A stretch of DNA of 64,000 nt from Caulobacter sp. (GCA_028291265.1 JAQGIK010000064.1:6082-70081); one strand, 5' to 3'. Positions 7,436 through 30,421 are shown, counted from the stretch's first letter. The notes: generated from the letters alone by a model not told the origin. Translations and numbers: made by a program.

Positions 7436-8773
7436 GTGGAGCGACTGCTCGCGGGCAAGATCAGTGCGGTCTCGGGCTTGCTTTGGCCTGGGGCAATGCT
7501 CGCGGTGGTGCTGCTGTTCGCCGCGCCGGCCGCCGCGCAGGCTGTGCACAACGGCGTCGGTAGCTGCGCGGGCTCGACCTGTCATGGGCGCAGCGCCGGC
7601 GACGGCGCCGTGGTGCGCCAGAACGAACTGGTCGTCTGGCAGGACTATACCAGCGCCGCCGGGGCCCACTCCAAGGCCTGGCGCAGCCTGCAGACCCCCT
7701 GGGCCCAGAAGATCGCCGACCGGCTGGGCATGGGCGAAGCCGCCCGCGCCCCGGCCTGCCTCGGCTGCCACACCGACAACGCCGTCCGCCGCGGGCCGAC
7801 CTTCCAGGTTTCCGACGGGGTCGGCTGCGAGTCCTGCCACGGCGGGTCCGAGGGCTGGCTGGCCAGCCACTACACGGTCGGGGCCAGCCGCGCCGACAAT
7901 CGGGCGCGCGGCATGCGAGCCCTGGAAGATCCGCGGGTGCTGGCCAGCACCTGCCTCGACTGCCACTTCGGCAGCGACAAGCCCGGCCAGTTCGTCAGCC
8001 ACCGCATGATGGCCGCCGGCCATCCGCGCATGAGTTTCGAACTGGACCTGTTCAACAGCTACCAGAACCACGCCCGCAAGCGTTCGGTCAGCGGCGTGAC
8101 CAGCTGGGCGGTCGGCCAGGCTATGGCGCTCGAGCGGTCGCTGACCCTGTTCGCCTCTTCGAAGGGCAGCGAGGGGGTATTCCCCGAATTCTACTTCTTC
8201 GACTGCCACAGCTGTCACCGGGCGATCAGCGACGAGGCCAATCCGCCGGTGCGGTTCGGGACCAATCCCGGCCGGCCCATCGTCTGGGGGGCGCCGCCCT
8301 ACAACGACGAGAACATGATCCTCCTCAACGCCGCCGCCAGGGTCGCCGCACCGGAACTGGCCGACCGCTTCGCCGCCGACTCCAAGGCCTTCCACCAGGC
8401 GATGGGCGGCGATCGGGCCGGCATGCTGAGCGCCGCGAGCCGCCTGAACGCCACCACCAGGCAGCTGGGCAATCGCTTCGCCGGGCGGGGCTTCGGCGAC
8501 AAGGACACCGTCGCCATCCTGCGGCTGGTGCTCGGCGACGCCTTGACCGTTCGCTACACCGACTACAGCGGCGGGGCCCAGGCGGTGATGGCCGTCGACA
8601 CCCTGCTGACCGCGGCGGTCAACCAGGGCGCGGTATCCAGCGGCGCGGCCGGCGGCATGCGCCGCGACATCGAGGCGGCCTACGCCGCCGTCCGTGACCC
8701 CAACGCCTATCGACCGGGCGACTTCCGCGCGGCCCTCGGCCGGGTGCGAAGCGCCCTGGAGCGCGCCACATGA
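7436..8773 (+). CDS. Exported multiheme cytochrome c (c554-like; 4 CxxCH plus one CxxxxCH)
   Basis: Signal peptide ending AAA-Q; CAGSTCH, CLGCH, CESCH, CLDCH, CHSCH. Start may be the ATG at 7496. Confidence 0.85.
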   Translation: MERLLAGKISAVSGLLWPGAMLAVVLLFAAPAAAQAVHNGVGSCAGSTCHGRSAGDGAVVRQNELVVWQDYTSAAGAHSKAWRSLQTPWAQKIADRLGMGEAARAPACLGCHTDNAVRRGPTFQVSDGVGCESCHGGSEGWLASHYTVGASRADNRARGMRALEDPRVLASTCLDCHFGSDKPGQFVSHRMMAAGHPRMSFELDLFNSYQNHARKRSVSGVTSWAVGQAMALERSLTLFASSKGSEGVFPEFYFFDCHSCHRAISDEANPPVRFGTNPGRPIVWGAPPYNDENMILLNAAARVAAPELADRFAADSKAFHQAMGGDRAGMLSAASRLNATTRQLGNRFAGRGFGDKDTVAILRLVLGDALTVRYTDYSGGAQAVMAVDTLLTAAVNQGAVSSGAAGGMRRDIEAAYAAVRDPNAYRPGDFRAALGRVRSALERAT

Positions 8774-10755
8774 TCCGGGCTTCAGTCCTGAGCCGAGCTT
8801 TGACCAGCGTCCTCGTCGCCGCCTCGCTCGTTGTCGCCTCCTGCTCCGGCGGCGGCGGTGGCGGCGGCGGTGGAGGGGGCGGAGGCGGTGGTGGCGGGGG
8901 AGGCGGCGGTGGCGGCGGCGGTGGGCCGGTCTATCCGCCGCTCGGCCTGGCCGCGCTCAGCGTCGCCGATGTCGAGGGCGTGGTGGCCCGGGCCGTGGCC
9001 GAGGCGCGGGCCCGGTCGCGCCCGGCGGTGATCGCCGTGACCGACCGGGTCGGCAATGTGCTGGCCGTCTATCGGATGACCGGCGCGCCGGCGACCATCA
9101 CCATCCGCCCGGGTCCCGGGACCAACCGCGACATCCAGGGCGTCGTCGCCCCCGCCGAGGCCGGGGCCATCGCCAAGGCGGTGACCGGCGCCTACCTCTC
9201 CTCGGCCGGCAACGCCTTCTCCAGCCGCACGGCCAGCATGATCGTGCAGCAGCACTTCCCGCCGGCTCCCGGCGCGGTCGGCCTCGAAAGCGGCCCGCTG
9301 TTCGGGGTGCAGTTCAGCCAGCTGCCCTGTTCGGACCTGAACCGGCGCTATGCGGCCGGCGGCGGGGCCACCGCCTTCCTCGGTCCCAAGCGCTCGCCGC
9401 TGGGCCTGGCCGCCGACCCCGGCGGCTTCCCGCTCTACAAGGGCGGGGTGCTGGTCGGCGGCGTCGGCGTCATCGCCGAGGGCGACTACGGCTTCGACCC
9501 CAACGTCACCAACGTCGACAACGACCTCGAAGAGATCATCGCCCTGGCGGCCATGAGCGGCCTCGACCCGGCGACCGAGATCAAGGCCGACCGCATCACC
9601 GTCGATGGGACGAGCCTGCGCTTCAGCGACGCCACGACCTCCGACCTGATGAGCACCCCGGCCAGCGCCCCGGCCTTTGGAACCCTGCCGGTCGGCACGG
9701 GCGTTCTCGTGCCGGTCATCGGCTATTACGCGGGCGGCGCGGCCATCGCCGGCCAGACCTTCGGAACCGAGGGCTCGGGGGTGCGCGACGCGGCCCCCGC
9801 CGAGTTCGCCGATCCGGACGCCTTCGTCCTGACCAACGGCGCCGGCGGCAATCGCTACCCGCCGGCCGCCGGGGCCGATGGCGGCAGCGTCACCACGCCG
9901 CTGACCGCCGCCGAGGCGCGCAGCCTTCTGGAGCAGGCCTTCGCCGTCATGCGCCACGCCCGGGCCCAGATCCGCCAGCCGCTCGACAGCCGCGCCCAGG
10001 TGACCATCTCGGTGGTCGACACCCACGGCGACATCCTCGGCATGGTGCGCTCGCCCGACGCCCCGGTGTTCGGCATCGACGTCTCGCTGCAGAAGGCCCG
10101 CACGGCGGCCTTCATGAGCAACCCCAACGCCGGCGCCGACCTGTCGGCCGATCCCAGCGCCGACGTCCGCGCCTTCGTGCCGGCCACCCGCACCTTCCTC
10201 GGCCGTCCCGACGCCCTGACCGGCGCCATCGGCTTTTCGGTCCGGGCCATCGGCAACCTGCACCGGCCCTATTTCCCCGACGGCGAGGTCGGCCGGCCGC
10301 CCGGCCCGCTGTCGCGCTCGATCGCCGACTGGAGCCCCTTCTCGACCGGCCTGCAGTCGGCCCTGGTCTTTAGCAATCTCGGCCAGCACCTGACCTTCGT
10401 GAACGGCGGCGGGGCCGACACCCCGGCCCGCTGCACGGCCCTGCCCGACGCCCGCCCCGGCCAGAACCGGCTGCAGAACGGCCTGCAGATCTTCCCCGGC
10501 GGCGTGCCCATCTATCGCGGCGGCCAGCTGGTCGGCGCCATCGGCGTCTCCGGCGACGGCATCGACCAGGACGACATGATCAGCGCCCTGGGCCTGACCA
10601 ACGCCGGCGGCGCCATCGGCCATCCGGCCCCGGGCATCCGCTCCGACACGGTCGTCGTCGTACAGGGCGCGACCAGCACGCGCCTGCGCTACGTCAACTG
10701 TCCCTTCGCGCCCTACATCGACAGCGGCGCCTCCAACGTCTGTTCCGGAATCTGA
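8770..10755 (+). CDS. Lipoprotein with poly-Gly linker and two GlcG/HbpS (heme-binding, DUF336-like) domains
   Basis: Lipobox VVAS-C; 26 Gly codons; two copies of the family signature (AIAKAVTGA / GGFPLYKGGVLVGGVGV and LQKARTAA / GGVPIYRGGQLVGAIGVSG). 4-nt overlap with the upstream gene. Confidence 0.82.
   Translation: MIRASVLSRALTSVLVAASLVVASCSGGGGGGGGGGGGGGGGGGGGGGGGGGPVYPPLGLAALSVADVEGVVARAVAEARARSRPAVIAVTDRVGNVLAVYRMTGAPATITIRPGPGTNRDIQGVVAPAEAGAIAKAVTGAYLSSAGNAFSSRTASMIVQQHFPPAPGAVGLESGPLFGVQFSQLPCSDLNRRYAAGGGATAFLGPKRSPLGLAADPGGFPLYKGGVLVGGVGVIAEGDYGFDPNVTNVDNDLEEIIALAAMSGLDPATEIKADRITVDGTSLRFSDATTSDLMSTPASAPAFGTLPVGTGVLVPVIGYYAGGAAIAGQTFGTEGSGVRDAAPAEFADPDAFVLTNGAGGNRYPPAAGADGGSVTTPLTAAEARSLLEQAFAVMRHARAQIRQPLDSRAQVTISVVDTHGDILGMVRSPDAPVFGIDVSLQKARTAAFMSNPNAGADLSADPSADVRAFVPATRTFLGRPDALTGAIGFSVRAIGNLHRPYFPDGEVGRPPGPLSRSIADWSPFSTGLQSALVFSNLGQHLTFVNGGGADTPARCTALPDARPGQNRLQNGLQIFPGGVPIYRGGQLVGAIGVSGDGIDQDDMISALGLTNAGGAIGHPAPGIRSDTVVVVQGATSTRLRYVNCPFAPYIDSGASNVCSGI
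8848..8925 (+). repeat. GGN trinucleotide tract encoding Gly26
   Basis: 26 consecutive GGN codons using mixed GGC/GGT/GGA/GGG. Confidence 0.95.
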
Positions 10756-10757
10756 CG

Positions 10758-12680
10758 ATGGCCGCCCTCCGCCCAACCCTGCTGCTCGGGAGCGCGGCCG
10801 CCGCCGCGCTGCTGGCCGGCGGAGCGTGGGCGGGAGACGGGTCAGTGATCGAGCAAGCGGTCGAGGCGGCGCGGCATCAGGCAGATGGCGAGACTCCGCC
10901 CGAGGTCATTGCCTCGCAGCCGAGATCCAGGCCGGATGCCGAGACCGTCGCGACCGCGCCCGCCGGAGAAGCCCAGCCGCAGTCGATGTTCGAATGGCTG
11001 CCCTGGCGCCGCCGACCAGGCCGTATCGAGACCTATCCCGACCGCGATCCGCAGGAGAACCCCGGCGCGGTCAACGCCCCGCCGCCGGAAGCCTTCCCGG
11101 CCGACCATTTCCCGATCCCCGACCGCTGGCGCCTGGCCGACCAGTTCGGGGTCAAGGAGAACTGGTTCGACCCCTACAACCAGAACACCTTCAAGGGCGA
11201 CCGCCCGATCCCCGGCACCGACGACCGCTTCCTGGTCTTCACCGGCATCATGGACACGGTCATCGAGCCGCGCAGCTTCCCCGTGCCGGTCGGCGTCCAG
11301 ACCACCTCGGGCCCCGGAAGCAACGATGTCTTCGGCCGCGCCGACAGCCTGGTCGCCTCACAGACCTTCGTCGCCGGCCTGGCCTTCATCGAGGGCTCGA
11401 CGGCCTTCAAGCCGCCGGACTTCGAGGCCCGGCTGACCCTGGCCTTCAACTACAATTACGCCGACATCAGCGAGCGCCGCATCCTGTCGGTCAAGCCCAG
11501 CCGCGACACCGAGCGCGAGGACTGGTTCATCGGCCTGCAGGAAGCCTTCGTCGATTACCACCTGCGCAACGTCTCGGACCGCTTCGACTTCGATTCCATA
11601 CGGGTCGGTATCCAGCCTTTCAACGCCGACTTCCGCGGCTTCCTGTTCCAGGACAACCAGCTGGGCGTGCGGCTTTTCGGCAACCGCGACAACAATCGCT
11701 GGCAGTACAACCTGGCCCTCTTCTGGCGCATCGAGAAGGACACCAACTCGGGCCTCAACGACCTGACCCAGACCCTGCGCGACGACCAGCTGTTCGTGGC
11801 CAACCTCTACCGCCAGGATTTCCCGGTCCCCGGCATGACCTCGCAGGTCACCGCCGTCTACAACCGCAACGACGAGGCCGACGAGATCCAGGTCGACGAC
11901 AACGGCTTCCCGGTCCGCCCGGCCCTGATCGGCAACCTGCGGCCCCGCGACTACGACGTCCTCTACCTGGGATACTCCGCCGACGGACGGTTTGGCCGGC
12001 TCAACCTCTCGGGCAGCCTCTACGGGGCGTTCGGCGAGGACCGCAATTCCATCTTCACCAGCAAGCCGGCCGACATCCGCGCCTGGTTCGCGGCGGTGGA
12101 GCCGTCGATCGATTTCAACTGGGTGCGGGTGAGGGGCTCCTTCCTCTACGCCTCGGGCGACGACGACCCCTACGACAACGTCGAGAAGGGCTTCGACGCC
12201 ATCTTCGAGAACCCGCAGTTCGCCGGAGCCGACACCAGCTACTGGATCCGCCAGTCGATCCCCTTCGCCGGCGGCGGCCGCGCCGTCGGCATCAACGGCC
12301 GCAACGGCATCCTCAATTCGCTGCGCTCGTCGAAGGAAGAGGGGCAGTCCAACTTCAACAACCCGGGGACCATGCTGGTCGGGATCGGGGCCGACCTCGA
12401 CGTCACGCCGCAGGTTCGCTTGAGCGGCAACATCAACCACCTGTGGTTCGACGACACCATCACCGTCCAGGTGTTGCGCAACGAGGGCTCGATCCCCAGG
12501 GAGCTGGGCCTCGACATGTCGGTCGGCGCCATCTGGCGGCCGTGGATGACCCAGAACATCGTCTTCAGGGCCTCGGGCGCGGTGTTCGAACCGGGCGACG
12601 GCTTCGGCGACCTGTTCACCAACGCCGAGGGCGACGACCGCTACTATTCGATCCTGCTCAACGCGACCCTGGCCTTCTGA
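10758..12680 (+). CDS. Putative outer-membrane beta-barrel protein
   Basis: Signal peptide (AWA-G), alternating amphipathic aromatic-rich strands, C-terminal ...LLNATLAF ending in Phe (BAM-type signal). Confidence 0.72.
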   Translation: MAALRPTLLLGSAAAAALLAGGAWAGDGSVIEQAVEAARHQADGETPPEVIASQPRSRPDAETVATAPAGEAQPQSMFEWLPWRRRPGRIETYPDRDPQENPGAVNAPPPEAFPADHFPIPDRWRLADQFGVKENWFDPYNQNTFKGDRPIPGTDDRFLVFTGIMDTVIEPRSFPVPVGVQTTSGPGSNDVFGRADSLVASQTFVAGLAFIEGSTAFKPPDFEARLTLAFNYNYADISERRILSVKPSRDTEREDWFIGLQEAFVDYHLRNVSDRFDFDSIRVGIQPFNADFRGFLFQDNQLGVRLFGNRDNNRWQYNLALFWRIEKDTNSGLNDLTQTLRDDQLFVANLYRQDFPVPGMTSQVTAVYNRNDEADEIQVDDNGFPVRPALIGNLRPRDYDVLYLGYSADGRFGRLNLSGSLYGAFGEDRNSIFTSKPADIRAWFAAVEPSIDFNWVRVRGSFLYASGDDDPYDNVEKGFDAIFENPQFAGADTSYWIRQSIPFAGGGRAVGINGRNGILNSLRSSKEEGQSNFNNPGTMLVGIGADLDVTPQVRLSGNINHLWFDDTITVQVLRNEGSIPRELGLDMSVGAIWRPWMTQNIVFRASGAVFEPGDGFGDLFTNAEGDDRYYSILLNATLAF

Positions 12681-12684
12681 AGCC

Positions 12685-15600
12685 ATGGGGCGGAAGGGCA
12701 TCAAACGCTGGCTGCTCGGAGCCCTGGCCATCGCGGCCTCCGTCCTTGTGGTCGGGGGCCTGACCACGGCCTCGGCCCTGGCGCGGGCCGAGGAAGAGGA
12801 AATGCCGGTCGCCCGGACCTACGTCGCCGCCCCGCCCGCCAAGGCCGGCCAGGCGCCCGCCGAAGCAAAAGCCAAGAGCGCCGGCTGCATGAGCTGCCAT
12901 TCGCCGGTCGACTCGGTGTCGATGCATGCCTCCGAGGCCGTGGTCATCGGCTGCGCCGACTGCCACGGCGGCGACGCTGGTGCGAGCCTGCCGGCCGGGA
13001 CAGCGAAGGACAGCGCCTCCTACGTCGCCGTCCGCGACCGGGCCCACGTCCTGCCGCGCTATCCCAAGGCCTGGGGCTGGCCGGGCTCGGCCAATCCCAA
13101 ACGCAGCTACAGCCTGCTCAATCGCGAGTCGCCAGCGTTCATCCGCTTCGTCAATCCGGGCGACTACCGCGTCGCCCGCCAGGCCTGCGGCGCCTGCCAC
13201 ATGGGGCTGATCGAGGCCAACGAACGCTCCCTGATGGCCACCGGGGCGATGTTCTATGGCGGGGCCAGCTACAACAACGGCGTCCTGCCGTTCAAACGCT
13301 ACATGGTCGGCGAGTCCTACACGCCCGACGGCGAGACGGCGAAGATCGTCTCTCCCGGCAAACCGGCCGGCACGGTCACCGAGGCGGAAGCCAGGCGCGG
13401 CGCCCTGCCGGTGCTCTATCCGCTGCCGACCTGGCAGGTGGTGCCGCCGGGCGATGTCTTCCGGGTGTTCGAGCGCGGCGGCCGCAACATCGGCACGCAG
13501 TTCCCCGAGATCGGCTTGCCCAACCCGACCGGCCAGACCCAGCGGCTGGAAGAGGCCGGCCGGCCCGACATCCGCCAGTCGAACCGGGGTCCGGGCACCG
13601 GCCTGCGCATCGCCGTGCCGGTGCTCAATATCCACAAGACCCGGCTGAACGATCCCTACACCTGGTTCCTCGGCACCAACGACCAGCCCGGCGACTACCG
13701 CTCCTCGGGCTGCGCCAGCTGCCACGTCGTCTACGCCAACGACCGCGAGCCGCGGCACAGCCTGACCTACGCCCAGTTCGGCCGCGACGGGCAGAGCCAG
13801 ACCGCCGATCCGACCATCGACAAGGCCGCGCCGGGCCACCCGCTGAAGCATGTGTTCAGCCGCGCCATCCCGACCAGCCAGTGCATGAACTGCCACATGC
13901 ACCAGCCCAACATGTTCCTGAACAGTTTCCTCGGCTACACCATGTGGGACTACGAGTCCGACGCGCCCTCGATGTGGCCGAAAAAGCAGAAATACCCCTC
14001 GGACAAGGACATCCGCGAAACCAACGACCGCAACCCCGAGGGCGCCGCGCCGAAGGGCCTGTGGGGCGACCTCGACTTCATGCGTGAGGTCTACGGCCTC
14101 AACAAAAACCTGAAAGACACCCAGTTCGCCGACTACCACGGCCACGGCTGGAACATCCCCGGCGTCTTGAAGCGCGACCGGGCAGGCAACCTGCTCGACA
14201 AGGACGGCAAGATCGTCAGCCCGGACGACCCCGAGAAATGGCGCAGGAAGGGGGAGGGCGAGTTCGTCCAGCCCGGCGTCAATCCCGGCAAGACCGTCCA
14301 CATGATGGATATCCACGCCGAGAAGGGCATGCAGTGCGCCGACTGCCACTTCGCCCAGGACAGCCACGGCAGCGGCCTGATCATGGGCGAGGTCGCCTCG
14401 GCCGTGGAGATCAGCTGCAAGGACTGCCACGGCAACGCGCGCAAGTATCCGAATCTGCGCACGTCCGGGCCGGCCGCCCCGCCTGGCGGCGCCGACCTGA
14501 TGGTCCTACGCAACCCGGACGGCCAGCGCCGTTTCGAATGGCTGGAGCGGGATGGCCGGCGCGTGCTGATGCAGCGCTCCATCGTCGATCCCAAGCTGGA
14601 GTGGGAGGTGTCGCTGGTGAAGGACGCCGTCGATCCGACCAGCCCGACCTTCAACGCCAAGTCGGCCCGCGCCAAGCTGATGAGCAAGGGGGTGGCGGGC
14701 CAGAAGCCGTTCGCGTTTGGATCGGGTGTCGCCGACAAGGATCTCGCCCACCCCGAGGCCGAGATCGCCTGCTTCACCTGCCACACCAGCTGGACGCCGA
14801 GCTGCGGCGGCTGCCACCTGCCCATCGAGGCCAACTGGAAGGCCGAGAGCCACAAGGACAAGGGCGGCGAGACCCGCAACTTCGCCACCTACAATCCGCA
14901 GGTGGCCCGCGACGACATGTTCCAGCTGGGCAAGCACCAGCTGACCCGCGGCGGCATCATCGCGCCTGTCCGATCAAGTTCGGCCCTGGTGCTCAGTTCA
15001 ACCAACATCAACCGCGAGCGCATCTATGTGCAGCAGCCGCCGATCTCGGCGGCGGGCTTCTCCAGCCAGGCCTTCGCGCCGCACTTCCCGCACACGGTGC
15101 GGACGACCGAGACCAAGACCTGCACCGACTGCCACGTCTCGGCGGCCGAGGACAACAACGCCATCATGGCCCAGCTGCTGACGCTGGGAACGGGCACAGT
15201 CAACTTCGTCGGCATGCATGCCTGGGTCGGGGCTGAAGGCGGCTTCGAGGCCATCCGCGTCACCGAATGGGACGAGCCGCAGGCGGTGCTCGGCTCCTAC
15301 CTGCAGAAGTACGCCTACCCCGACTTCTACGGGATGCACGTCAGCAAGAACCGTCTCCAGCTGATGAACTGGACCCGCAAGGCCAGGGACGGCGGGGTCG
15401 AGGAATTCGCCAATGTCCGCCAGGGGGCCGGCGGCGACGTCCGCTGCCTGCAGCTGCGCGGGGAATACATGTACGTGGCCGAGGGCCGGGGCGGCTTCCG
15501 CGTCTATGACGTGGCCAGCATCGGCAACAAGGGCGTCTCCGAACGCATCGTCACCGCGCCGTTCTCGGGCGCGGGCCACGACACCCAGGTCGCCTCGGCC

Positions 15601-16587: not shown

Positions 16588-16976
16588 GGCTCGCGCGAGA
16601 TCGGGAACAGCGCCCGCAGTCTCGGATTGCGCAGCCACAGCCCGCCCCACATGAACAGGCCGAGATAGAGACTGAACAGCTCATGGCTGAACAGCGGATT
16701 GCCGACCCGCACCTGGGTCGCCATGGCCCCGCCCAGCAGTCCCATCATCAGCACCGCGCCGAGCACACTGGTGCGCGGGATCAGGTAGAGCACCAGGCAG
16801 GTCAGCTCGATGATGCCGATCAGCAGCACATAGCCCGGCGGCCAGCCGAGGCCGGTGAGGGTTTCGGCCGCCACCGGCAGATGCAGCAGCTTGGGCGCGA
16901 TGGATGCGCCGAGCATGAACAGGGCGAAGAGCCCGGTCAGCACGCGGCCGGTCCAGACCATTGCGGATGCGTTCAT
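16584..16976 (-). CDS. DoxX-family membrane protein
   Basis: 130 aa, four hydrophobic segments, IGIIEL...LYLIPRTSVLGAVL pattern typical of DoxX_2. Confidence 0.8.
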   Translation of the reverse strand: MNASAMVWTGRVLTGLFALFMLGASIAPKLLHLPVAAETLTGLGWPPGYVLLIGIIELTCLVLYLIPRTSVLGAVLMMGLLGGAMATQVRVGNPLFSHELFSLYLGLFMWGGLWLRNPRLRALFPISREP

Positions 16977-17156
16977 TTACGTCCCCTCCCGGGATTGTGG
17001 CCTTGGGCCCGTTGGCCCGCCTCTCTTCCAAGGACGGCCGCTGCCGGCCGTTCCCGACATGGCCCTGACAGTAATCGCCGTTCGCCGGCCCCGAAAGGCC
17101 CCGTCGCCTCGGCCTTCGGGATGGTCCATAAGGAGGCGTCGCCCGGAGCACCGCCC

Positions 17157-17327
17157 GTGAAATCGCCGCCTTCCAAGACCCGCCTGTCGGACCTCAAGGG
17201 CGGATCGGGCCCCGCCAAGAAGTTCGAACCGCCGACCCCGAAGGTCAGCCGCCTCAAGAAGGGCAAGGTGCTGACGCCGGCCGAGAAGGCGGCCTTCCTG
17301 GCCTCGAGACCCGACCTCAAGGGGTGA
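17157..17327 (+). CDS. Small basic hypothetical protein (56 aa; alternative ATG at 17121)
   Basis: GGAG 8 nt before GTG; GC-rich third positions; Lys/Pro-rich. No family recognised. Confidence 0.45.
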   Translation: MKSPPSKTRLSDLKGGSGPAKKFEPPTPKVSRLKKGKVLTPAEKAAFLASRPDLKG

Positions 17328-17337
17328 GGAAGCCCGA

Positions 17338-22824: not shown

Positions 22825-23697
22825 TCACCAGTAGATGAAGACGCTGACGATGTGCGCGGTCAGCGCCATCAGCAGGGCGATGGAAGCGGGGACGTGAATA
22901 GCCAGCCAGGCCCCCAGCAGGGTGCGGATGCGCAGGTGCTTGCGCAGTTGCAAGAGGGCGGCGCTCTTGCGGTCGAGCAGGGCGGTGACGTTGCCGATGG
23001 CGGCCCGTTCGCTCTCGCTGGCCCGGCGGATGAGGCCCTTCAGCTTGCGCAGCGCCCGCCGGGTGCCGCAGTCCATCGGCCGGGTGCTCAGCCTGCGGAA
23101 GAAACCGCCGCCGACCTTGCTCTTCTCCAGCGACAGCCGCACCGCCGCCGCCTGGCGCTGGTTCAGCGGCTGGGCCGCGTCGTTGAGCTGGCGGTCGAGG
23201 CTGCGGATGGTCTCGACCATCTGCTTCTGGGTGGTCTCGCGGCGGTTGTTGCTGAGGGCCTTGGGCAGGCCGGCGTAGGCGATGATGCCGTAGACTCCCG
23301 ACAGCACGACGAGGATCATCAAGGCATAGGCGAGCGTATGGATGTTCCAGCCGAACTGCAGCCCGCTGTGCAGGGTGGCGATGGCGACCAGGGCGATGCC
23401 CAGATAGACGTGGGCCGAGACCCAGGCCTTCAGCGACCAGTCGCCCTTGGTGATCACCCGCTTGCGGATGCCCAGCGCCGTCAGCCAGACGATCAGCAGG
23501 GCGCCGATGGTCCCGAGCGTATAGCCGTACCAGCTGCCGCCATTGGGCCTGGGGTGCACATCGGCCAGCACATAGCCGACCGCCGCCGCGATGCTCAAGG
23601 CCAGTCCGACCCAGGCCCAGCGATAGCCGGCATGGCGCAGGAAGCCGACATGGACCTGGGCGTTCGACCGCTTTCCCTTGCGCGGCGCCCTGGCCAT
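22825..23697 (-). CDS. Integral membrane protein with two His-x13-His helices (di-heme b / ferric-reductase-like)
   Basis: About five TM segments; AHVYLGIALVAIATLH and IHVPASIALLMALTAH. 1-nt gap from the upstream gene. Confidence 0.7.
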   Translation of the reverse strand: MARAPRKGKRSNAQVHVGFLRHAGYRWAWVGLALSIAAAVGYVLADVHPRPNGGSWYGYTLGTIGALLIVWLTALGIRKRVITKGDWSLKAWVSAHVYLGIALVAIATLHSGLQFGWNIHTLAYALMILVVLSGVYGIIAYAGLPKALSNNRRETTQKQMVETIRSLDRQLNDAAQPLNQRQAAAVRLSLEKSKVGGGFFRRLSTRPMDCGTRRALRKLKGLIRRASESERAAIGNVTALLDRKSAALLQLRKHLRIRTLLGAWLAIHVPASIALLMALTAHIVSVFIYW

Positions 23698-23698
23698 C

Positions 23699-26146
23699 TC
23701 AGCTCTCGCCCCGCACGCGGGTGACGGTCAGGAAGTCCTCGGGCGAGACCCGGATCGCCGCCCCGGTCGGGCAGGCCCGCACGCAGGCCGGACCCCCGTC
23801 GATGCCGGCGCACATGTCGCATTTGATGGCGACCTTGGGCTTCTCGCCGTGCTTCTTCTTGGCCTTGGTCTTCCACTCGAGGTCCGGCTCGCCGGGCCCG
23901 GGTCCGGCCCCGAACAGGAACCAGCTCAGGAGGCCCGGCTTCTGCGGCGGCGGGCTGTCCATGCGGATCACTCCGTAAGGGCAGTTGCGCTGGCAGTTGC
24001 CGCAGCCGATGCAGGTCTCGTCGATGAACACCTCGCCGTCGGCCCCGCGCCGGATGGCGTTGGGCGGGCAGTCGGTCATGCAGTAGGGGTGCTCGCAGTG
24101 CCGGCAGCTGGTCGGCACATGCAGGTTGGCGTAGGTGCGGCCCGCCTCGCGGTCCAGTCGCGACAGCCCGTCATGAACGTCGGCGCAGGCCTTCTCGCAG
24201 TTGTCGCAGCCGACGCAGAGGGTCTCGTCGATCAGCAGCACGTCGGTGGCCTCGCCGATGCCCTGGTCGACCAGGAAGTCGGCCACGGAGCTGTAAAGAT
24301 CGACCACCCCGCTGAAGCGGTCCTTCTGCTCCTCGATGTAGCTGTTGATCTGTTTGCGGGACCGCATGTCCTCCCGCATCTTGGCTTCGAGTTCGGGCTT
24401 GCGGGCCAGCAGCCGCCGGAACAGATCGCCGTCCAGCCGCACCACTTCGGAGCGGATCGCCGCCCGCACCGTCGCCGTCCGTCGGCCGCCGTCGATCAGC
24501 GCCATCTCCCCGACATACGACCCGGCCGGGACATAGTTGAGGAACACCGTCTTGCCGCCGATCTCCTTTTCGATGGTCATCGAGCCGGAGCGGATGATGA
24601 AGATGTCGTAGCCTTCCTCACCCTCGTTGATGATGGCGTCCTCGGCCTTGACCTGCATGAGCTCGGCGCTGGTCAGCACCTCGACGATGTCTTCCTTGGT
24701 CAGGCCCGAGCCGAAGATCTGCAGCATCTGGCGTTCGGTGGTGATGCGGTTGACCGTCTCCCGCGCGTCCTTGTTCTGGGCCATCAGCCGCAGGCTGGCC
24801 GTGCGTGGCATCTCCAGCAGGATGCAGGGCTCGGCCGCACGGATCGTCGCCCCGCGGCGGCGGCCGGATATGAGGCCCACCTCGCCGAAGATGGAGCCCT
24901 GGCCGATCGGCACCGTCTCGCGCCGGTTCTTCGGATTGACCTCGACCTTCACGGAGCCGGCGGCGATGCCGAACATCGAGGAGCCGATGGAATTGCGCTG
25001 GAAGATGACCTCGTCCGGCGCGCAGACCCGCACCGAGGAATCGAGCAGGAACTCCCGCATCTGCAGGGTTGACAGGCCGTTGAGGATTTCGATCCGTGTG
25101 CGGAGGAATTCCAGCCACTCGGCCACCGACTGGCCGCCGGGCAGGGCCGCCAGCTTGGCCTCGAGGATCGGTTCGTCGGCGGGTTTCAGGCCGAGGTTGC
25201 CGGTGATGAACTCGATGACATCGTAGCCCTGGTTCATGCAGTGCTTGATCAGCGGATAGCCGGCCAGGGCCCCGATGACATAGATGCCGGGCGCGGTGGT
25301 TTCGAAGGTCGGCGACAGGCGCGGAAAGGCGTCGCGGTCCGCGCTCGTGAAGGCCACGCCCATGGCCTCGACGAACTTGCGCGGCGGGGCCGAGCCCATG
25401 CGGGCGATGATCCGGTCACAGCGGATCGACTGCTGCCCTTCCGGTGTGTCGATGGTGATGAAGCCGGGGTCGACCCGGGCCGGACTGGAGCCCGCCAGGA
25501 TGGTGATCCGGCCGGCCGCCGCCGCGTCGGTCAGGGCCTTGACGTTGGCCTCCTTGGCGCGCGCGAAATCCATCGACTTGTTGAGCAGGGTGACGGTGTT
25601 GCCCTGGGCCTGGTCGGCGATCAGGCCCAGCGCGTTCTCGATGCCGGCGTCGCCGCCGCCGACCACGACGATGTGCTCGTCGACGTACTCGGTCGGGTCG
25701 TCGAGCGTGTACTGGATGTGCTTCAGGTCGCTGCCCGGCACGGTCATGACGTTGGGGTTGCCCTGGGTGCCGATGGCCAGCACCACGGTCTCGGCCTTCA
25801 GCACCCGGCCGTCGGTCAGGGTGATGGTGAAGTCGCCGCGCGATCCGGCGACGGAGGCGGCCTCGGCCCTGTAGGCGACATTGACCTTGTGGCCGCCCGT
25901 CTCGCTGTTCCAGCGGTCGAGGATGGTCTCGCGCTTGCCGGCCTCGAAACCGATGTCCGAGCGCAGCACCAGCTGCGTCGGGGTGGCCATGATGTGCTTG
26001 CCGCGCTGGTAGCGGAAGATGGTGTCGGAGAGGCGGTCGGTCTTCTCCAGCAGGACGTGACTCATCCCCCGGCGGGCGGCGCGCGCGGCGGCGCTGAGGC
26101 CGGCCGGCCCCGAGCCCAGGATCGCAACCCTGTAGACTCCCTCCAT
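23699..26146 (-). CDS. Fusion: FAD/NAD(P)-dependent oxidoreductase (TrxB/YpdA-like) + two cNMP-binding domains + 4x[4Fe-4S] ferredoxin (815 aa)
   Basis: Start MEGVYRVAILGSGPAG at 26146; second Rossmann motif VVGGGDAG; FGEVGLISGRRRGATIRA and VGEMALIDGGRRTATVRA; 16 Cys in four DmsB/NrfC-like cluster motifs. Confidence 0.9.
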   Translation of the reverse strand: MEGVYRVAILGSGPAGLSAAARAARRGMSHVLLEKTDRLSDTIFRYQRGKHIMATPTQLVLRSDIGFEAGKRETILDRWNSETGGHKVNVAYRAEAASVAGSRGDFTITLTDGRVLKAETVVLAIGTQGNPNVMTVPGSDLKHIQYTLDDPTEYVDEHIVVVGGGDAGIENALGLIADQAQGNTVTLLNKSMDFARAKEANVKALTDAAAAGRITILAGSSPARVDPGFITIDTPEGQQSIRCDRIIARMGSAPPRKFVEAMGVAFTSADRDAFPRLSPTFETTAPGIYVIGALAGYPLIKHCMNQGYDVIEFITGNLGLKPADEPILEAKLAALPGGQSVAEWLEFLRTRIEILNGLSTLQMREFLLDSSVRVCAPDEVIFQRNSIGSSMFGIAAGSVKVEVNPKNRRETVPIGQGSIFGEVGLISGRRRGATIRAAEPCILLEMPRTASLRLMAQNKDARETVNRITTERQMLQIFGSGLTKEDIVEVLTSAELMQVKAEDAIINEGEEGYDIFIIRSGSMTIEKEIGGKTVFLNYVPAGSYVGEMALIDGGRRTATVRAAIRSEVVRLDGDLFRRLLARKPELEAKMREDMRSRKQINSYIEEQKDRFSGVVDLYSSVADFLVDQGIGEATDVLLIDETLCVGCDNCEKACADVHDGLSRLDREAGRTYANLHVPTSCRHCEHPYCMTDCPPNAIRRGADGEVFIDETCIGCGNCQRNCPYGVIRMDSPPPQKPGLLSWFLFGAGPGPGEPDLEWKTKAKKKHGEKPKVAIKCDMCAGIDGGPACVRACPTGAAIRVSPEDFLTVTRVRGES

Positions 26147-26278
26147 TGTTCGCCCCGTCGGCCGGAAAGCCCGGCTGCCCCAAGGGATACGGCCCCCTGC
26201 CGCCCCTTCGATTGCTTTACCAGTACAGGCGATTGCGACTAACGTATATCGCTTGGAACGGGAGCGCGTCGGGGGACC

Positions 26279-28255
26279 ATGAGCGCCGAAATCGGCCAGT
26301 TCGCCCTGATCCTCGCCTTCGTGCTGGCGCTGGTTCAATCCGTGGTGACGATGTGGGGCGCCCACCGTCGCGATGACGCCCTGATGGCGCTCGGCCGCAT
26401 GGCCACGCTGCTGCAGCTTTTCTTCGTGGTCATCGCCTTCGGGGCCATCGCCTGGGGCTATGCGACGCTCGACTTTTCGGTCGAGCTGGTCGCCCGCCAC
26501 AGCCACACGACCCAGCCGCTCGCCTACCGCCTGGCCGCCACCTGGGGCAGCCATGAGGGCTCGATGGTGCTGTGGATCCTGATCCTGGCGCTGCACGGTG
26601 GGGCCTTGGCCGTGTTCGGCCGCCCCCTGCGGACGACCTTCCTGTCGCGGGTGCTCGGCATCCAGGGCCTGCTCGGCGCCGCCTTCCTCGGCTTTTCGCT
26701 GTTCACGTCCAATCCCTTCCTGCGTCTATCGCCCGCGCCACTCGAAGGGACCGAGCTCAATCCGCTGCTGCAGGACCCCGGCCTGATCAGCCACCCGCCG
26801 CTGCTCTACCTCGGCTACGTCGGCTTCAGCGTCGCCTTCGCCTTCGCCCTCGCCGCCCTGATCGAGGGCCGGGTCGACGCCGCCTGGGCGAGATGGGTGC
26901 GGCCCTGGGTGCTGTTCGCCTGGACGTCCCTGACCGTCGGTATCGCGCTCGGCAGTCACTGGGCCTACTACGAGTTGGGCTGGGGCGGCTGGTGGTTCTG
27001 GGATCCGGTCGAGAACGCCTCCCTGATGCCCTGGCTGATGGGCACCGCCCTGCTGCACAGCGCCCTGGTGCTGGAAAAGCGCGGGGCCCTGATCAGCTGG
27101 ACCCTGCTGCTTTCTATCCTCACCTTCTCGCTCAGCCTGATCGGCACCTTCCTGGTCCGCTCGGGCATCCTCAACAGCGTCCACGCCTTCGCCGTCGACA
27201 GCGCCCGCGGCGCCTATGTCCTGGCCTTCTGCGTGTTGGCGACGGGCTCGGCCCTGGCCCTCTACGCCTGGCGGGCCCCGGCCATGCGCACCGGCGCCGT
27301 CTTTGGTCCCATCTCCAGGGAGGCCGGGATCACGCTCAACAACCTGGTGCTGGTGGTGGCCACGGCGACCGTCTTCCTCGGCACCTTCTATCCGCTGCTC
27401 TACCCGCTGATCAGCAATGGCGGCACCATCACCGTCGGCCCGCCCTTCTTCAACCTGATCTTCCTGCCGTTGTTCGCCATCCTCCTGACCCTGGTCGGCT
27501 TCGGCCCTCTGCTGCATTGGAAGCGGGATGCGGTGAAGGCCATCCTCGTCCGCCTGCGCTGGCCGCTCGGCCTGTTCGTCATCGCGCTGCTGGTCGGGAC
27601 CTTCGCCTTCGGCCTCGGCAAGACCCTGGCCGCCTTCGGCATCGCGCTGGGCGTCTGGCTGATCGCCGCCGGCGGCCTCCTGCTCGTGCGCCGCTGGGGC
27701 CTGGGCTCGAAGAGCGCCGCCGCCAACTGGAGCCTGGTCCGCACCACGCCGGTCGCCATCTGGGCCGTGGCCCTGGCCCACACGGGCCTCGGCGTCACCT
27801 GCGTTGGGGTCACCGCCATGGGCGGGTTCGAGGCCAGCAAGGTGCTGCGCATGGGCCCCGGCGACCAGGTCGAGTTCGCCGGCCGCACCGTCATCCTCGA
27901 CAGCCTCGGCGAGGTCGCCGGCCCCAACTACCAGGCCGACCGCGGGGTCTTCCGCATCGTCGGCGGGCGCGGCCCCAGACAGCTGATCTCCGAGCGCCGC
28001 TTCTACCCCTCCAGCCAGAGCCAGACCATCGAGGCGGCCATCGGGCCGTCGCTGGTCGGCAATCTCTACATCTCGGTCGGTGAGCGCGACCAGGCCGGCA
28101 AGGCCGTCATCCGGATGTGGAACCACCCCTTCGTCGGCTGGATCTGGGGCGGCGCCATCCTGATGGCGCTCGGCGGCCTCATTTCGCTCAGCGACCGCCG
28201 CCTGCGCCTCGGCGCCCCCCAGCCGTCCCGCAAGACCGTCGAGGCCGCCGCATGA
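26279..28255 (+). CDS. ccmF: Cytochrome c heme lyase CcmF/NrfE
   Basis: WGGWWFWDPVENASL (WWD domain), WGSHEGS, HPPLLYLGY, SVHAFA. Confidence 0.96.
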   Translation: MSAEIGQFALILAFVLALVQSVVTMWGAHRRDDALMALGRMATLLQLFFVVIAFGAIAWGYATLDFSVELVARHSHTTQPLAYRLAATWGSHEGSMVLWILILALHGGALAVFGRPLRTTFLSRVLGIQGLLGAAFLGFSLFTSNPFLRLSPAPLEGTELNPLLQDPGLISHPPLLYLGYVGFSVAFAFALAALIEGRVDAAWARWVRPWVLFAWTSLTVGIALGSHWAYYELGWGGWWFWDPVENASLMPWLMGTALLHSALVLEKRGALISWTLLLSILTFSLSLIGTFLVRSGILNSVHAFAVDSARGAYVLAFCVLATGSALALYAWRAPAMRTGAVFGPISREAGITLNNLVLVVATATVFLGTFYPLLYPLISNGGTITVGPPFFNLIFLPLFAILLTLVGFGPLLHWKRDAVKAILVRLRWPLGLFVIALLVGTFAFGLGKTLAAFGIALGVWLIAAGGLLLVRRWGLGSKSAAANWSLVRTTPVAIWAVALAHTGLGVTCVGVTAMGGFEASKVLRMGPGDQVEFAGRTVILDSLGEVAGPNYQADRGVFRIVGGRGPRQLISERRFYPSSQSQTIEAAIGPSLVGNLYISVGERDQAGKAVIRMWNHPFVGWIWGGAILMALGGLISLSDRRLRLGAPQPSRKTVEAAA

Positions 28256-28791
28256 GGCGCCTGGCCTTCATCGTCCCGGTCATCGTCTTCCTCGGCATCG
28301 CCGCCGTGCTGGCCGTCGGCCTCGGTCGCGATCCGAAAATCCTGCCCTCGATGCTGATCGGCAAGCCGTTGCCGACCTTCAACCTGCCCGACGTCCGCGC
28401 CGGCACGGGCGGCCGGGGCCTCGCCTCAGCCGACTTCCACGGCAAACCCGGCCTGATCAACGTCTTCGCCAGCTGGTGTGTCTCCTGCCGCATCGAGCAC
28501 CCCTTCCTGATGCGTCTCAAGGCCGAGGGCGTCTCGATCCACGGCCTCAACTGGAAGGACAAGGGCGACGCCGGAGCCCGCTGGCTGACCCGGTTCGGCG
28601 ACCCCTACGACCGCGTCGGCTACGACCCGACGGGCCGCACCGGCATCAACCTCGGCGTCACCGGCGCCCCCGAGACCTTCGTCATCGATAGCAAGGGCGT
28701 GGTCCGCTACCGCTACGTCGGCCCGATCACGCCGGAGGTCTGGGCCACCACCCTGAAACCCCTGCTCGACAAGCTGGAGGCCGAAGCATGA
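28252..28791 (+). CDS. ccmG: Thiol:disulfide interchange protein CcmG/DsbE
   Basis: N-terminal anchor, NVFASWCVSC, LGVTGAPETFVID; ATG overlaps the ccmF stop. Confidence 0.93.
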   Translation: MRRLAFIVPVIVFLGIAAVLAVGLGRDPKILPSMLIGKPLPTFNLPDVRAGTGGRGLASADFHGKPGLINVFASWCVSCRIEHPFLMRLKAEGVSIHGLNWKDKGDAGARWLTRFGDPYDRVGYDPTGRTGINLGVTGAPETFVIDSKGVVRYRYVGPITPEVWATTLKPLLDKLEAEA

Positions 28792-29246
28792 AGCGTCTCC
28801 TCGCCCTCGTCCTCGCCTTGACCGTCGTCGCCGGCCCGGCCCTCGCGGTCCTGCCCGAAGAACAGCTCAAGGACCCGGTTCTCGAGGCCCGCGCCCGCCA
28901 TCTCAGCAAGGAACTGCGCTGCGTCGTCTGCCAGAACCAGACCATCGACGACAGCGACGCCCCCCTGGCCGCCGACCTGCGCGCTATCCTGCGCGAGCGG
29001 CTGGTGGCCGGCGACAGCGACAAGCAGGCCAAGGCCTATCTGGTCCAGCGCTACGGCGACTTCGTGCTGCTGAAACCGCCGATCAATCCCGCCACCCTGT
29101 TCCTCTGGTTCGGCCCGGCCCTGCTGCTGCTCGGCGGCGGCTTTGGCGTCTGGCGCTACTGGCGCGGCCGGTCGGTCGCCGCCCCGGCCCCGCTCGACCC
29201 CGAAGAACAGGCCCGGCTCAAAGCCCTGCTGAGCGAGACATCATGA
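28788..29246 (+). CDS. ccmH: Cytochrome c biogenesis protein CcmH/CycL
   Basis: LRCVVCQNQTIDDS motif and YGDFVLLKPP. Confidence 0.95.
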   Translation: MKRLLALVLALTVVAGPALAVLPEEQLKDPVLEARARHLSKELRCVVCQNQTIDDSDAPLAADLRAILRERLVAGDSDKQAKAYLVQRYGDFVLLKPPINPATLFLWFGPALLLLGGGFGVWRYWRGRSVAAPAPLDPEEQARLKALLSETS

Positions 29247-30421
29247 TCCTCTGGATGGTCCTCACCCTGCTGGTCGCCCTGGCCGTGGTCGGCCTAGTCA
29301 TCCCCCTGACCCGGCCGCGCAAGAGCGTCGACGCCGCCGCCACCCCGACCGGCATCCTCGCCGACCAGCTGACCGAGCTCGACGCCCAGGCCGCCGCCGG
29401 GACCGTCACCGCCGACGAGGCCGCCCGGCTCAGGCTGGAGATCGAGCGCCGCATGCTGGCCGAGGCCAAGGGCCCCGAAGCCCCCGCCCGTCCGTTGAGT
29501 GAAAAGGCCCTGCTGGGCCTGGCCCTCGGCCTGGCCGTCGTCGTCGCGCTCGGCGCCACCGGCCTCTACGCGGTGATGGGCAAACCCGACATTCTGTCCG
29601 CCAACGCCCAGGCCGCCGGCCCGCCGGGTTCGGCCAGCTTGGCCGCCAACCACCCCGGCGGCGACGTGCCCGCCATGATCGCCCAGCTCAAGGCCCAGGT
29701 GGAGCGCAACCCGTCCGACCCGGAAGGCTGGCGGATGCTCGGCTGGTCCTACTTCCAGAGCGGCCAGTTCGACGAGTCCGCCGCCGCCTACGACAAGGCT
29801 GCGACCAACGATCCGACCAACCCCGAGCACCGCTCGGCCCAGGGCGAGTCCCTCGTCCAGGCCGCCGGCGGCCAGATGACCCCGGCCTCCTCCGCCGCCT
29901 TCCGTCAGGCCCTCAAGCTCGACCCGAACGACCCCCGCGCCCGCTACTTCCTGGCCGTCGAGAAGGACCAGGCCGGCGACCAGGACGGGGCCATGGCCGA
30001 CTGGATCGCCCTGATCAATTCGGCCCCGGAGGGCGCCCCCTGGGTCGGCGAGGTCCGCAACTTCGTCGAGGACCTGGCCCGCGAACGCGGCCTCGACCTG
30101 ACCGGCAAGCTGAAACCCGTCAGCGGCGGCGGCGGCCCGCGCGGCCCCAGCGCGGACGACGTCGCGGTCGCCCAGAAGATGACCCCCGACGACCAGCAGC
30201 AGATGATCCGCGGCATGGTCGAGGGCCTCGAAGGCCGTCTGCAGGAACAGCCCCGCGACGCCGAAGGCTGGATCCGCCTGATGCGCGCCCGCATGGTGCT
30301 GGGCGAACCGGCGGCCGCCTCCCGGGCGCTGAAACAAGGCCGGGCGGCGTTCGCCGACTCCCCGTCCGACCAGGCGCGGATCAGCGAGGCGGCGAAGGGG
30401 CTGAAGGTGCCGGGGGCCTAA
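29243..30421 (+). CDS. ccmI: Cytochrome c biogenesis protein CcmI/CycH (TPR)
   Basis: Two N-terminal TMs, leucine-zipper-like loop, TPR-like periplasmic region; follows ccmH. Confidence 0.9.
   Translation: MILWMVLTLLVALAVVGLVIPLTRPRKSVDAAATPTGILADQLTELDAQAAAGTVTADEAARLRLEIERRMLAEAKGPEAPARPLSEKALLGLALGLAVVVALGATGLYAVMGKPDILSANAQAAGPPGSASLAANHPGGDVPAMIAQLKAQVERNPSDPEGWRMLGWSYFQSGQFDESAAAYDKAATNDPTNPEHRSAQGESLVQAAGGQMTPASSAAFRQALKLDPNDPRARYFLAVEKDQAGDQDGAMADWIALINSAPEGAPWVGEVRNFVEDLARERGLDLTGKLKPVSGGGGPRGPSADDVAVAQKMTPDDQQQMIRGMVEGLEGRLQEQPRDAEGWIRLMRARMVLGEPAAASRALKQGRAAFADSPSDQARISEAAKGLKVPGA

Follow-up and report, generated by a model that had tools for sequence, protein, structure and literature searches.

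A Caulobacter gene island predicted to pair an undescribed multiheme outer module with a cyclic-nucleotide-binding PCC4/Ptd-type inner half

Gene content and heme inventory of the island

We analysed a 64,000-nucleotide (nt) stretch of DNA from Caulobacter sp. (GCA_028291265.1, JAQGIK010000064.1:6082-70081; hereafter the window, with positions counted from its first letter), in which a first-pass annotation had singled out positions 7436-30421 as a candidate trans-envelope multiheme electron-transfer system. Gene calls and Pfam domains confirmed all the genes, domains and tight operons that it had described. The region is made up of three compact operons, within which each gene either shares 4 nt with the next or lies 1-7 nt from it, the exception being a gap of 49 nt before the phosphodiesterase gene g7. 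The operon g1-g2-g3-g4 runs along the plus strand from 7436 to 16587, g11-g10-g9-g8-g7 is read on the minus strand from 26146 down to 17790, and ccmF-G-H-I (26279-30421, plus strand) diverges from g11. The genes are as follows.

g1, 7436-8773 (+): c554-like cytochrome with a Sec signal (Pfam Cytochrome_C554, 6.8e-11)
g2, 8770-10755 (+): HbpS/GlcG-like lipoprotein (Pfam HbpS-like, 2.2e-25, three stretches; lipobox)
g3, 10758-12680 (+): predicted 18-strand outer-membrane beta-barrel, 640 aa (AlphaFold2 and Foldseek)
g4, 12685-16587 (+): decaheme cytochrome with LVIVD beta-propeller, 1300 aa (Pfam LVIVD, 8e-17; Cytochrome_C7)
g7, 17790-18659 (-): class III metallophosphoesterase (Pfam Metallophos, 3.2e-23)
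g8, 18709-20973 (-): CHASE2 plus class III nucleotidyl cyclase (Pfam CHASE2, 2.8e-52; Guanylate_cyc, 3.2e-19)
g9, 20970-22817 (-): FHA domain, one transmembrane (TM) segment and decaheme (Pfam FHA, Cytochrome_C7)
g10, 22825-23697 (-): 5-TM inner-membrane protein, predicted di-heme b carrier (four invariant His)
g11, 23699-26146 (-): flavoprotein, two cNMP_binding domains and 4x[4Fe-4S] (Pfam Pyr_redox, cNMP_binding, Fer4_11/Fer4_7)
ccmF paralogue, 26279-28255 (+) (Pfam CcmF_C, 7.5e-95)
ccmG/DsbE paralogue, 28252-28791 (+) (Pfam Redoxin)
ccmH paralogue, 28788-29246 (+) (Pfam CcmH, 1.3e-51)
ccmI/CycH-like TPR apocytochrome chaperone paralogue, 29243-30421 (+) (Pfam TPR_CcmH_CycH)
g6, 17338-17793 (+): small TonB_C-domain protein, 151 aa (Pfam TonB_C, 5.9e-6)

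The reported total of 25 heme c motifs proved correct, comprising 24 CxxCH and one CX4CH. They are distributed over g1, g4 and g9, which are the sole proteins with at least three CxxCH motifs encoded in the 4.35-Mb genome.

The two cytochrome operons are linked across phyla

We scanned species-representative genomes with g9 and mapped all window proteins onto the 45 loci retrieved; phyletic patterns were examined in 151 genomes of the order and in 401 genomes sampled across the class. g11, g10 and g9 were found together in all mapped loci. The g1-g2-g3-g4 block adjoins g9-g11 in Caulobacterales, Enterovirga and some sphingomonads, while a gammaproteobacterial metagenome-assembled genome (MAG; locus L033) and a Bdellovibrionota MAG (L037) carry a single co-directional operon, g11-g10-g9-g2-g3-g4(-g1). 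At the level of the order, g9 and g4 occurred in exactly the same 13 of 151 genomes, and two of nine genomes of the same genus carried both. Across the class, g4 was present in 21 and g10 in 27 of the 401 genomes, g10 being found in every g4 carrier (21/21). The corresponding hypergeometric odds are 5e-19 for the order and 6e-30 for the class, both calculated with shared ancestry ignored; inheritance alone is an unlikely cause, because the distribution is patchy across about 15 genera. Co-occurrence in 13/13 and 21/21 genomes and the single operons of distant phyla bear out the first-pass view that the two cytochrome operons belong together, and we conclude that they are functionally linked.

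It could be argued that three operons became neighbours by chance and that ccmFGHI is an ordinary housekeeping set. The split arrangement seen in 12 Sphingomonas and Novosphingobium genomes would fit such a reading: their g1-g4 operon lies hundreds of kb from g9-g11, and their one ccmF is located elsewhere. In all 12 of them (12/12), a g4 of ~70% identity is nevertheless present elsewhere in the genome. The perfect co-occurrence at both order and class depth, the single operons in other phyla (L033 and L037) and a separate housekeeping ccmI-E-F-H set in the same genome largely refute a chance neighbourhood, which we regard as barely credible.

The carriers, Sphingomonas, Novosphingobium and Caulobacter among them, are heterotrophs of soil and fresh water. 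Three loci (L044, L046 and L047) came from MAGs titled 'Candidatus Kuenenia stuttgartiensis' with a GC content of about 70%. The GC content of Kuenenia is about 41%. A link to anammox through these loci was therefore dropped, the labels being probably wrong.

The electron-input half

The first gene of the minus-strand operon, g11, encodes a cytoplasmic single chain that joins a TrxR/YpdA-type flavoprotein, two cyclic nucleoside monophosphate (cNMP)-binding domains and a 16-Cys HycB-like ferredoxin domain; its sequence matches in the PDB were YpdA/Bdr, the PKA regulatory subunit and HycB. The flavin domain lacks a CxxC pair and resembles YpdA and TrxR-type ferredoxin-NADP reductases. Among 29 homologues, all of the cluster cysteines (16/16) were invariant and both phosphate-binding cassettes (G-E ... 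R-x-A-T), which read FGEvGLISGRrR..T and GE....G..R.ATV, were at least 90% conserved. With the cassettes that characterize PF00027 in place, the domains fit a predicted cyclic-nucleotide receptor. In the planctomycete-type locus L047, a 1162-aa protein (L047:12974-16462, minus strand) with 2Fe-2S, Nqo3-like 4Fe-4S, three cNMP-binding and C-terminal 4Fe-4S domains takes the place of g11. Since cNMP domains lie beside an Fe-S chain there too, cNMP binding appears to be a family trait rather than a local accident, and these domains can be considered intrinsic to the cluster family on the basis of domain content.

The 5-TM protein g10 has four histidines, H96, H110, H268 and H282, that were invariant in 36 homologues from several phyla. 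They sit in pairs 13 residues apart on two helices (W-x3-H-x13-H twice) and form part of the motifs W92/H96/H110, S133-G134-x-x-G137 and W264/H268/H282, whose W, S and G residues were invariant in 12-36 homologues. A Lys/Arg-rich N-terminus and a 110-residue TM4-TM5 loop predict an N-in topology, which would place H96 and H268 near the cytoplasmic face and H110 and H282 near the periplasmic face. This arrangement would provide the geometry for two stacked b-hemes, as in NOX/ferric-reductase and cytochrome b proteins, in agreement with the di-heme-b-like protein that had been noticed at the outset. Sequence and profile searches of g10 against the PDB retrieved no relative.

The third component, g9, consists of a cytoplasmic FHA domain, a TM segment (residues 146-164) and a periplasmic decaheme, and 10 CxxCH motifs were found in 40/40 homologues. 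The FHA domain is present in the alpha- and gammaproteobacterial versions and absent from those of Bdellovibrionota and planctomycetes. Nothing was found for g9 in the PDB by sequence or profile searches. The c554-like g1 carries four CxxCH motifs and an N-terminal CAGSTCH (CX4CH, residues 44-50), which is kept in every full-length homologue across phyla.

Relationship with PCC4 and Ptd clusters

He et al. 2017 (PMC5566968) predicted PCC4 clusters, in which genes for a porin and for periplasmic cytochromes with 4, 5 and 10 hemes accompany those for an Fe-S protein and a 5-TM protein, and linked the motifs W-x3-H-x13-H and SGxxG to di-heme b binding of the NOX/FRD type. The same set has been described as ptdABCDEFG in a preprint that calls its function 'completely unknown' (bioRxiv 10.1101/2023.11.21.568154), and we found no follow-up in the literature on ptd. 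The inner module of the Caulobacter island is orthologous to theirs, with an FAD/NAD(P) oxidoreductase and a cNMP-binding Fe-S protein upstream of the membrane protein. g11 corresponds to a fused PtdC and PtdE, g1 to PtdD, g10 to 'IMP'/PtdF and g9 to PtdG, and the W-x3-H-x13-H (TM3 and TM5) and SGxxG (TM4) of g10 match the published motifs. A fused protein, to which g11 is 47-49% identical, is also present in the PCC4-type loci L061-L063. Identity to L062 and L063, which were taken from class-level genomes with g10 but without g4, was 47-49% for g11, 42% for g10, 26-29% for g9 and 36-37% for g1. The so-called tetraheme of these clusters (L062:3017-4414; L063:12326-13747 and 17068-18519) likewise contains the conserved CX4CH, which is why we read it as probably a pentaheme. 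The first-pass annotation knew of no characterized system with this gene set; a gene set without precedent it is not, given that its inner half is that of PCC4 (PMC5566968) and of ptdC-G (bioRxiv 10.1101/2023.11.21.568154), both of them only predicted.

The outer halves are different. PCC4/Ptd clusters encode a pentaheme of ~600-650 aa with a beta-sandwich (PtdA) and a porin of ~545 aa (PtdB), whereas the island encodes an HbpS-like lipoprotein, an AlgE-like 18-strand barrel and a 1300-aa decaheme/LVIVD-propeller. tblastn of g3 and g4 against L061-L063 gave no match, and hhalign assigned probabilities of 0.4% to the g3 family against the L062 porin and 5% to the g4 family against the L062 pentaheme. 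The hosts of PCC4/Ptd are saline or iron-oxidising, as opposed to the soil and freshwater aerobes that host the island, and the island lineage adds a CHASE2 cyclase, a phosphodiesterase (PDE) and a second ccmFGHI. Sequence comparison thus depicts a modular family with a common inner unit and alternative outer units. We found no published description of a unit of HbpS-lipoprotein, AlgE-like barrel and decaheme-propeller, which goes unmentioned in two surveys of extracellular electron transfer; the literature on LVIVD together with multihemes yielded only the unrelated Tenderiales uet cluster. The island would accordingly represent an undescribed outer module on a predicted PCC4/Ptd inner half.

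A further relative of the inner half is the 'NHC' trio of Ferrigenium straubiae, an FHA-nonaheme with a 5-TM protein and a [4Fe-4S] protein, which is expressed in this iron oxidiser and, in the authors' proposal, connected with the quinone pool (bioRxiv 10.64898/2026.01.22.701106). As in g9-g11, a protein with a cytoplasmic FHA domain, one TM segment and a periplasmic multiheme is encoded beside 5-TM and [4Fe-4S] genes, but it has nine hemes where g9 has ten, and no outer module is described there.

These relatives raise the question of direction. PCC4 clusters were reported from Zetaproteobacteria and Hyphomicrobium of Fe/Mn-oxidising settings and modelled as inward conduits (PMC5566968). Applied to the island, that model would let a donor outside the cell or in the periplasm, such as Fe(II) or Mn(II), feed electrons through the hemes into the di-heme b protein, from which quinone or NAD(P)+ would receive them. 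The expression of the FHA-nonaheme trio in Ferrigenium (bioRxiv 10.64898/2026.01.22.701106) is in keeping with it, and a heme chain is reversible in principle. However, g10 never occurs without a cytoplasmic NAD(P)H/FAD/Fe-S partner and belongs to no evident family with a quinone site; a two-heme carrier working inward would oppose the membrane potential, and NAD(P)+ reduction from Fe(II) is strongly uphill. Given also that the carriers studied here are soil and freshwater heterotrophs, we consider inward flow improbable.

The outer half

The lipoprotein g2 has 26 consecutive glycines after the lipobox cysteine (8845-8922, residues 26-51), followed by repeated HbpS/GlcG-like domains. All of its homologues have a lipobox and then a tether rich in Gly/Pro/Thr that is shorter than that of g2, from which we conclude that a flexible linker is conserved and that the poly-Gly run is local. 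In single-operon loci, g2 always lies between the g9 and g3 homologues.

g3 ends in ...NATLAF and had no match in Pfam, nor was anything found for it in the PDB by sequence or profile. An AlphaFold2 model based on an alignment of 12 sequences gave a confident barrel of 18 long strands. Its best Foldseek match was AlgE (3rbh, E 3.8e-17), followed by chitoporin and OccD/OprD channels; MtrB was not among the top 50 matches. As modelled, the barrel is AlgE/OccD-like and not Mtr-like. It also has an N-terminal extension of ~150 residues and a near-invariant loop at ~481-531 (GGGRAVG.NGRNGILNSLRSSKEEGQSNFNNPG) with a predicted local distance difference test (pLDDT) score below 40, which is a candidate plug or partner-binding element.

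g4 combines ten CxxCH motifs with LVIVD repeats behind a Sec signal without lipobox. AlphaFold2 predicted its C-terminal ~400 residues as a confident beta-propeller, whose Foldseek neighbours were generic 7-8-bladed propellers only. Identity between Caulobacterales and Sphingomonadales is ~70%, and 25% of the columns were invariant in an alignment of 14 sequences that covers at least four phyla. The invariant residues include all ten motifs and 15 further histidines, two of them in the propeller; His885 and His1004 are among the invariant ones. Such strong conservation fits a catalytic or multi-partner terminal protein, and g4 is a candidate terminal oxidoreductase. More than 7400 relatives were found in databases, all named 'hypothetical' or 'LVIVD repeat-containing'.

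As in MtrCAB and the Geobacter Pcc systems, multihemes, an outer-membrane barrel and a lipoprotein are encoded together in the island. This invites the interpretation that it forms a true MtrCAB-like conduit, in which part of g4 or g2 is threaded through g3 and insoluble Fe(III)/Mn(IV) oxides, humics or electrodes are reduced for respiration or for redox balancing at low oxygen. Beyond a lipoprotein, a barrel and a decaheme in one module, this interpretation could draw on weak matches to the MtrC/MtrF domains (domain II/IV in g9, 31.4 bits against a cut-off of 30; PF22113 in g4, 22.1 bits, below cut-off), on the typical location of LVIVD propellers at the cell surface according to the Pfam description and the literature, on a flexible g2 tether long enough that it could pass through the barrel, and on a TPR/SlipAM-like outer-membrane protein encoded nearby. 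The details of the parts argue otherwise. g3 has 18 AlgE/OccD-like strands, whereas MtrB has about 26 and sheathes a periplasmic decaheme. g4 has a plain Sec signal, and g2, the island's only lipoprotein, contains no heme c motif (CxxCH), in contrast to MtrC/OmcA-type surface lipoprotein cytochromes. The conservation of g4 is far above that typical of outer-surface cytochromes, and the hosts are aerobic heterotrophs. Electron input also differs, the domains of the island pointing to NAD(P)H via Fe-S and heme b, with quinones bypassed and energy not conserved, where MtrCAB and Pcc receive electrons from quinol via CymA/ImcH/CbcL; no sequence relationship with these systems extends beyond generic multiheme motifs. 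The barrel's 18 strands and the degree of conservation of g4, which resembles that of an enzyme, lead us to prefer a soluble substrate, reaching g4 at the channel or by way of it, to an MtrA-in-MtrB wire, and we consider a conduit of the MtrCAB kind unlikely. Of the beta-barrel conduit initially proposed, a predicted barrel remains, but its AlgE-like fold does not show a cytochrome-in-porin wire like that of MtrAB. Surface exposure is possible, considering the tethered lipoprotein g2 and the cell-surface reputation of LVIVD propellers.

Accessory and neighbouring genes

The metallophosphoesterase motifs of g7 are intact (D8-x-H10, G46-D47, G77-N-H-D80 and G188-H-V-H191). Its NCBIfam scores for SpdA (145.6 bits) and CpdA (81 bits) are both below cut-off, and we regard it as a candidate cNMP phosphodiesterase (SpdA/CpdA/Rv0805-like) with a 3',5' or 2',3' substrate. 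It follows g9 in 27 loci, including most of the alphaproteobacterial ones, and in the Bdellovibrionota locus L037 an HD-domain gene is found instead, so that a PDE or HD-domain gene is a recurrent neighbour of the cluster. g8 is a membrane protein with three TM segments that couples a CHASE2 sensor to a class III cyclase. By eye, it has the metal Asp residues, the substrate Lys and a Ser at the second specificity position, a pattern that would fit class IIIb adenylate cyclases. It is confined to close relatives of the Caulobacter and to locus L060, and it also adjoins the cluster in the gammaproteobacterial L033; a CHASE2 cyclase has hence been recruited beside the cluster in one alpha- and one gammaproteobacterial lineage. 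Of the parts from which a switch by cyclic nucleotides had been proposed, the cNMP-binding cassettes are borne out by their conservation, as are the 16 Fe-S cysteines of the same protein, and the candidate PDE by its wide occurrence; the cyclase is lineage-specific.

The ccmFGHI set of the island is a second copy, the housekeeping genes being ccmI-E-F-H on contig C75 and ccmG on contig C6, and island CcmF is 49% identical to the copy on C75. In all cluster-positive Caulobacteraceae (5/5), an extra ccmF adjoins the cluster and each genome has two, compared with one in most negatives. In a second family, a single ccmF lies within ~7 kb of the cluster in 8/8 positives, and the 12 sphingomonad carriers have one ccmF each, elsewhere in the genome. 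In ~20 loci from sphingomonads and Enterovirga, g11 has a CcmI/CycH-type TPR gene as its divergent neighbour. The link of the cluster to cytochrome maturation is therefore recurrent, and since carriers exist with a single ccmF, a private heme lyase appears not to be a strict requirement. What had been described as the system's own heme lyase does travel with the island in Caulobacteraceae as a second copy, yet the 12 sphingomonads and eight second-family genomes carry the cluster with a single ccmF. Those same single-ccmF carriers led us to drop the CX4CH of g1 as the reason for the extra ccmF. The situation recalls NrfEFG, where a second CcmF/CcmH/CcmI set is also found beside presumed clients, one of which has an atypical heme motif, with the difference that here a single CcmF would serve for the maturation of this CX4CH protein in carriers from two further lineages, so that the extra set appears not to be tied to the motif. 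The extra ccmFGHI probably supplies heme-attachment capacity for the 25 sites. In a genome of the same family without g4 and g9 (G145), the single ccmF (C1:413582-415552) is 63% identical to the cluster-type copy, compared with ~49% for housekeeping copies, and may either be left over from an island since lost or have taken the place of the housekeeping gene.

The island is cleanly bounded by other genes. To its left, a gene for a 3290-aa adhesin with FG-GAP and cadherin-like repeats is divergent from g1 (3-7229 in the window, minus strand, reaching C21:3440 outside it). L060 has a similar FG-GAP/cadherin protein at the equivalent position, and in the Bdellovibrionota L037 the gene after g4 encodes an FG-GAP protein of 547 aa; the cluster may repeatedly have an adhesin of this kind as its partner at the surface. 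Beyond the adhesin, at C21:1066-3425 and also at L060:1-1303, lies a pair made up of a FecR-domain protein and a TPR/SlipAM-like outer-membrane protein (DUF2860). In L033, the g8 homologue adjoins a FecR-domain protein and a TPR protein (L033:2886-6642). FecR, the TPR outer-membrane protein and CHASE2 look like a sensing triad, and the weak SlipAM resemblance suggests the idea of a possible surface export of the g2 lipoprotein. A homologue of g6 was found only in L004 among the mapped loci and is absent from L060; this TonB_C gene is lineage-specific and probably not part of the core. A 214-aa open reading frame at 16683-17327 was rejected as a gene on account of its lack of a Pfam match, its biased composition and the lack of a counterpart in L060. 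The right border of the island is marked by unrelated catabolic and oxidative genes after ccmI, among them those for the alpha subunit of a Rieske ring-hydroxylating oxygenase (30549-32378, plus strand) and for a tyrosinase-domain protein (37434-38684, minus strand). An Rfam search of the window returned no RNA element, and the window contains no tRNAs and no obvious island borders.

With so many regulatory parts, the island could be viewed as a device for redox sensing and signalling, in which the heme chain reports the extracytoplasmic redox state to the cytoplasm and the FHA and cNMP domains, together with the cyclase and the PDE, convey the output. Signalling domains are indeed unusually dense (FHA, two cNMP, CHASE2 cyclase and PDE), and FecR and TPR outer-membrane proteins are encoded nearby. 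HbpS in Streptomyces is an accessory of a redox-stress sensor. A sensor made of 25 c-hemes, sixteen Fe-S irons and a catalytic-type flavoprotein would, however, be very costly; cNMP-binding domains normally act as inputs rather than outputs, most carriers lack the cyclase, and the cluster has no conserved transcription factor or kinase. We hold a primarily sensory role to be very unlikely.

Proposed mechanism

The reading that we prefer, with a probability of roughly 0.6, is a regulated electron-export chain from NAD(P)H through g11, g10, g9 and g1 to g4, with g2 at the channel g3; from gene content, conservation, co-occurrence and predicted folds we infer its cofactors, direction, gating and acceptor. 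NAD(P)H would reduce the FAD of g11, whose domains suggest that electrons then move along four [4Fe-4S] clusters. Two b-hemes held by the four His of g10 would carry them across the inner membrane, as its motifs and predicted topology indicate, and in the periplasm they would be relayed by g9, the decaheme anchored in the membrane, and by the c554-like pentaheme g1. g4 would be the end point, working with the lipoprotein g2 at the 18-strand channel g3 and reducing an acceptor either at the surface or after its entry through the channel. Outward flow would be downhill, with the inside-negative membrane potential pushing electrons out via the two-heme carrier. Such a route would bypass the quinone pool, conserve no energy and drain NAD(P)H, and a drain of this kind would explain why the chain should be gated by cNMP and have a dedicated PDE, an FHA input and, in this lineage, a sensor cyclase within the operon. 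Control would be exerted by the two cNMP domains of g11, the FHA domain of g9, and the PDE and, in this lineage, the CHASE2 cyclase encoded in the same operon.

Several observations weigh against an export chain of this form. The modelled AlgE-like barrel with its 18 strands is too narrow for an MtrA-like cytochrome, so that electrons may or may not cross the outer membrane. The heme-rich region of g4 was predicted with a low-confidence fold (pLDDT below 50), and sequence and profile searches against the PDB returned no relative of g4 and with it no structural hint at its chemistry. g10 has no Pfam match at E<=0.01, the ferric-reductase domain PF01794 included, other than a spurious one to YfhO. 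g7 is closest to SpdA, a 2',3'-cNMP enzyme, and most carriers of the cluster have neither the cyclase nor the extra ccm set. All members of the family are known from their genes alone, and its PCC4 relatives were first found in iron oxidisers and modelled inward (PMC5566968).

In its general plan, the proposed export chain resembles NOX, FRE and MsrPQ, which have two b-hemes on His pairs 13 residues apart and pass NAD(P)H electrons outward in a regulated, non-energy-conserving manner. g10 is distinguished from NOX and ferric reductases by the missing domain match, five TM helices and a cytoplasmic insert of ~110 aa, and the reductase of the island is a separate TrxR-type flavoprotein with four Fe-S clusters, followed by 25 c-hemes downstream. 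We tentatively put forward, as a rather doubtful extension, that the island is an envelope-spanning counterpart of NADPH oxidases and ferric reductases, in which cyclic AMP would trigger the dumping of NAD(P)H electrons, past the respiratory chain and by way of the Fe-S clusters, two b-hemes and 25 c-hemes, to the surface, where the decaheme-propeller enzyme would reduce O2 (giving regulated extracellular superoxide/peroxide), Fe(III)/Mn(IV) or humic quinones.

Biological significance

The island is widespread, occurring in about 5% of the sampled alphaproteobacterial species (21/401), and relatives of its terminal protein g4 number in the thousands in metagenomes. The proposal is directly testable, since several type strains in culture are among the carriers; cultured carriers found here are Sphingomonas changbaiensis NBRC 104936, S. 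tabacisoli CGMCC 1.16275, S. horti MAH-20, Novosphingobium olei TW-4 and N. tardum. If true, the export chain would be a quinone-independent, second-messenger-gated route by which cytoplasmic reducing power reaches the envelope and the first direct control of an electron-transfer enzyme by cNMP, and it would add a new family of di-heme b membrane carriers and a new heme/propeller oxidoreductase. The hosts are ordinary aerobes that are not considered electroactive, and the attribution of extracellular redox chemistry in oxic soils and waters, from metal and humic reduction to reactive-oxygen production and detoxification, would change.

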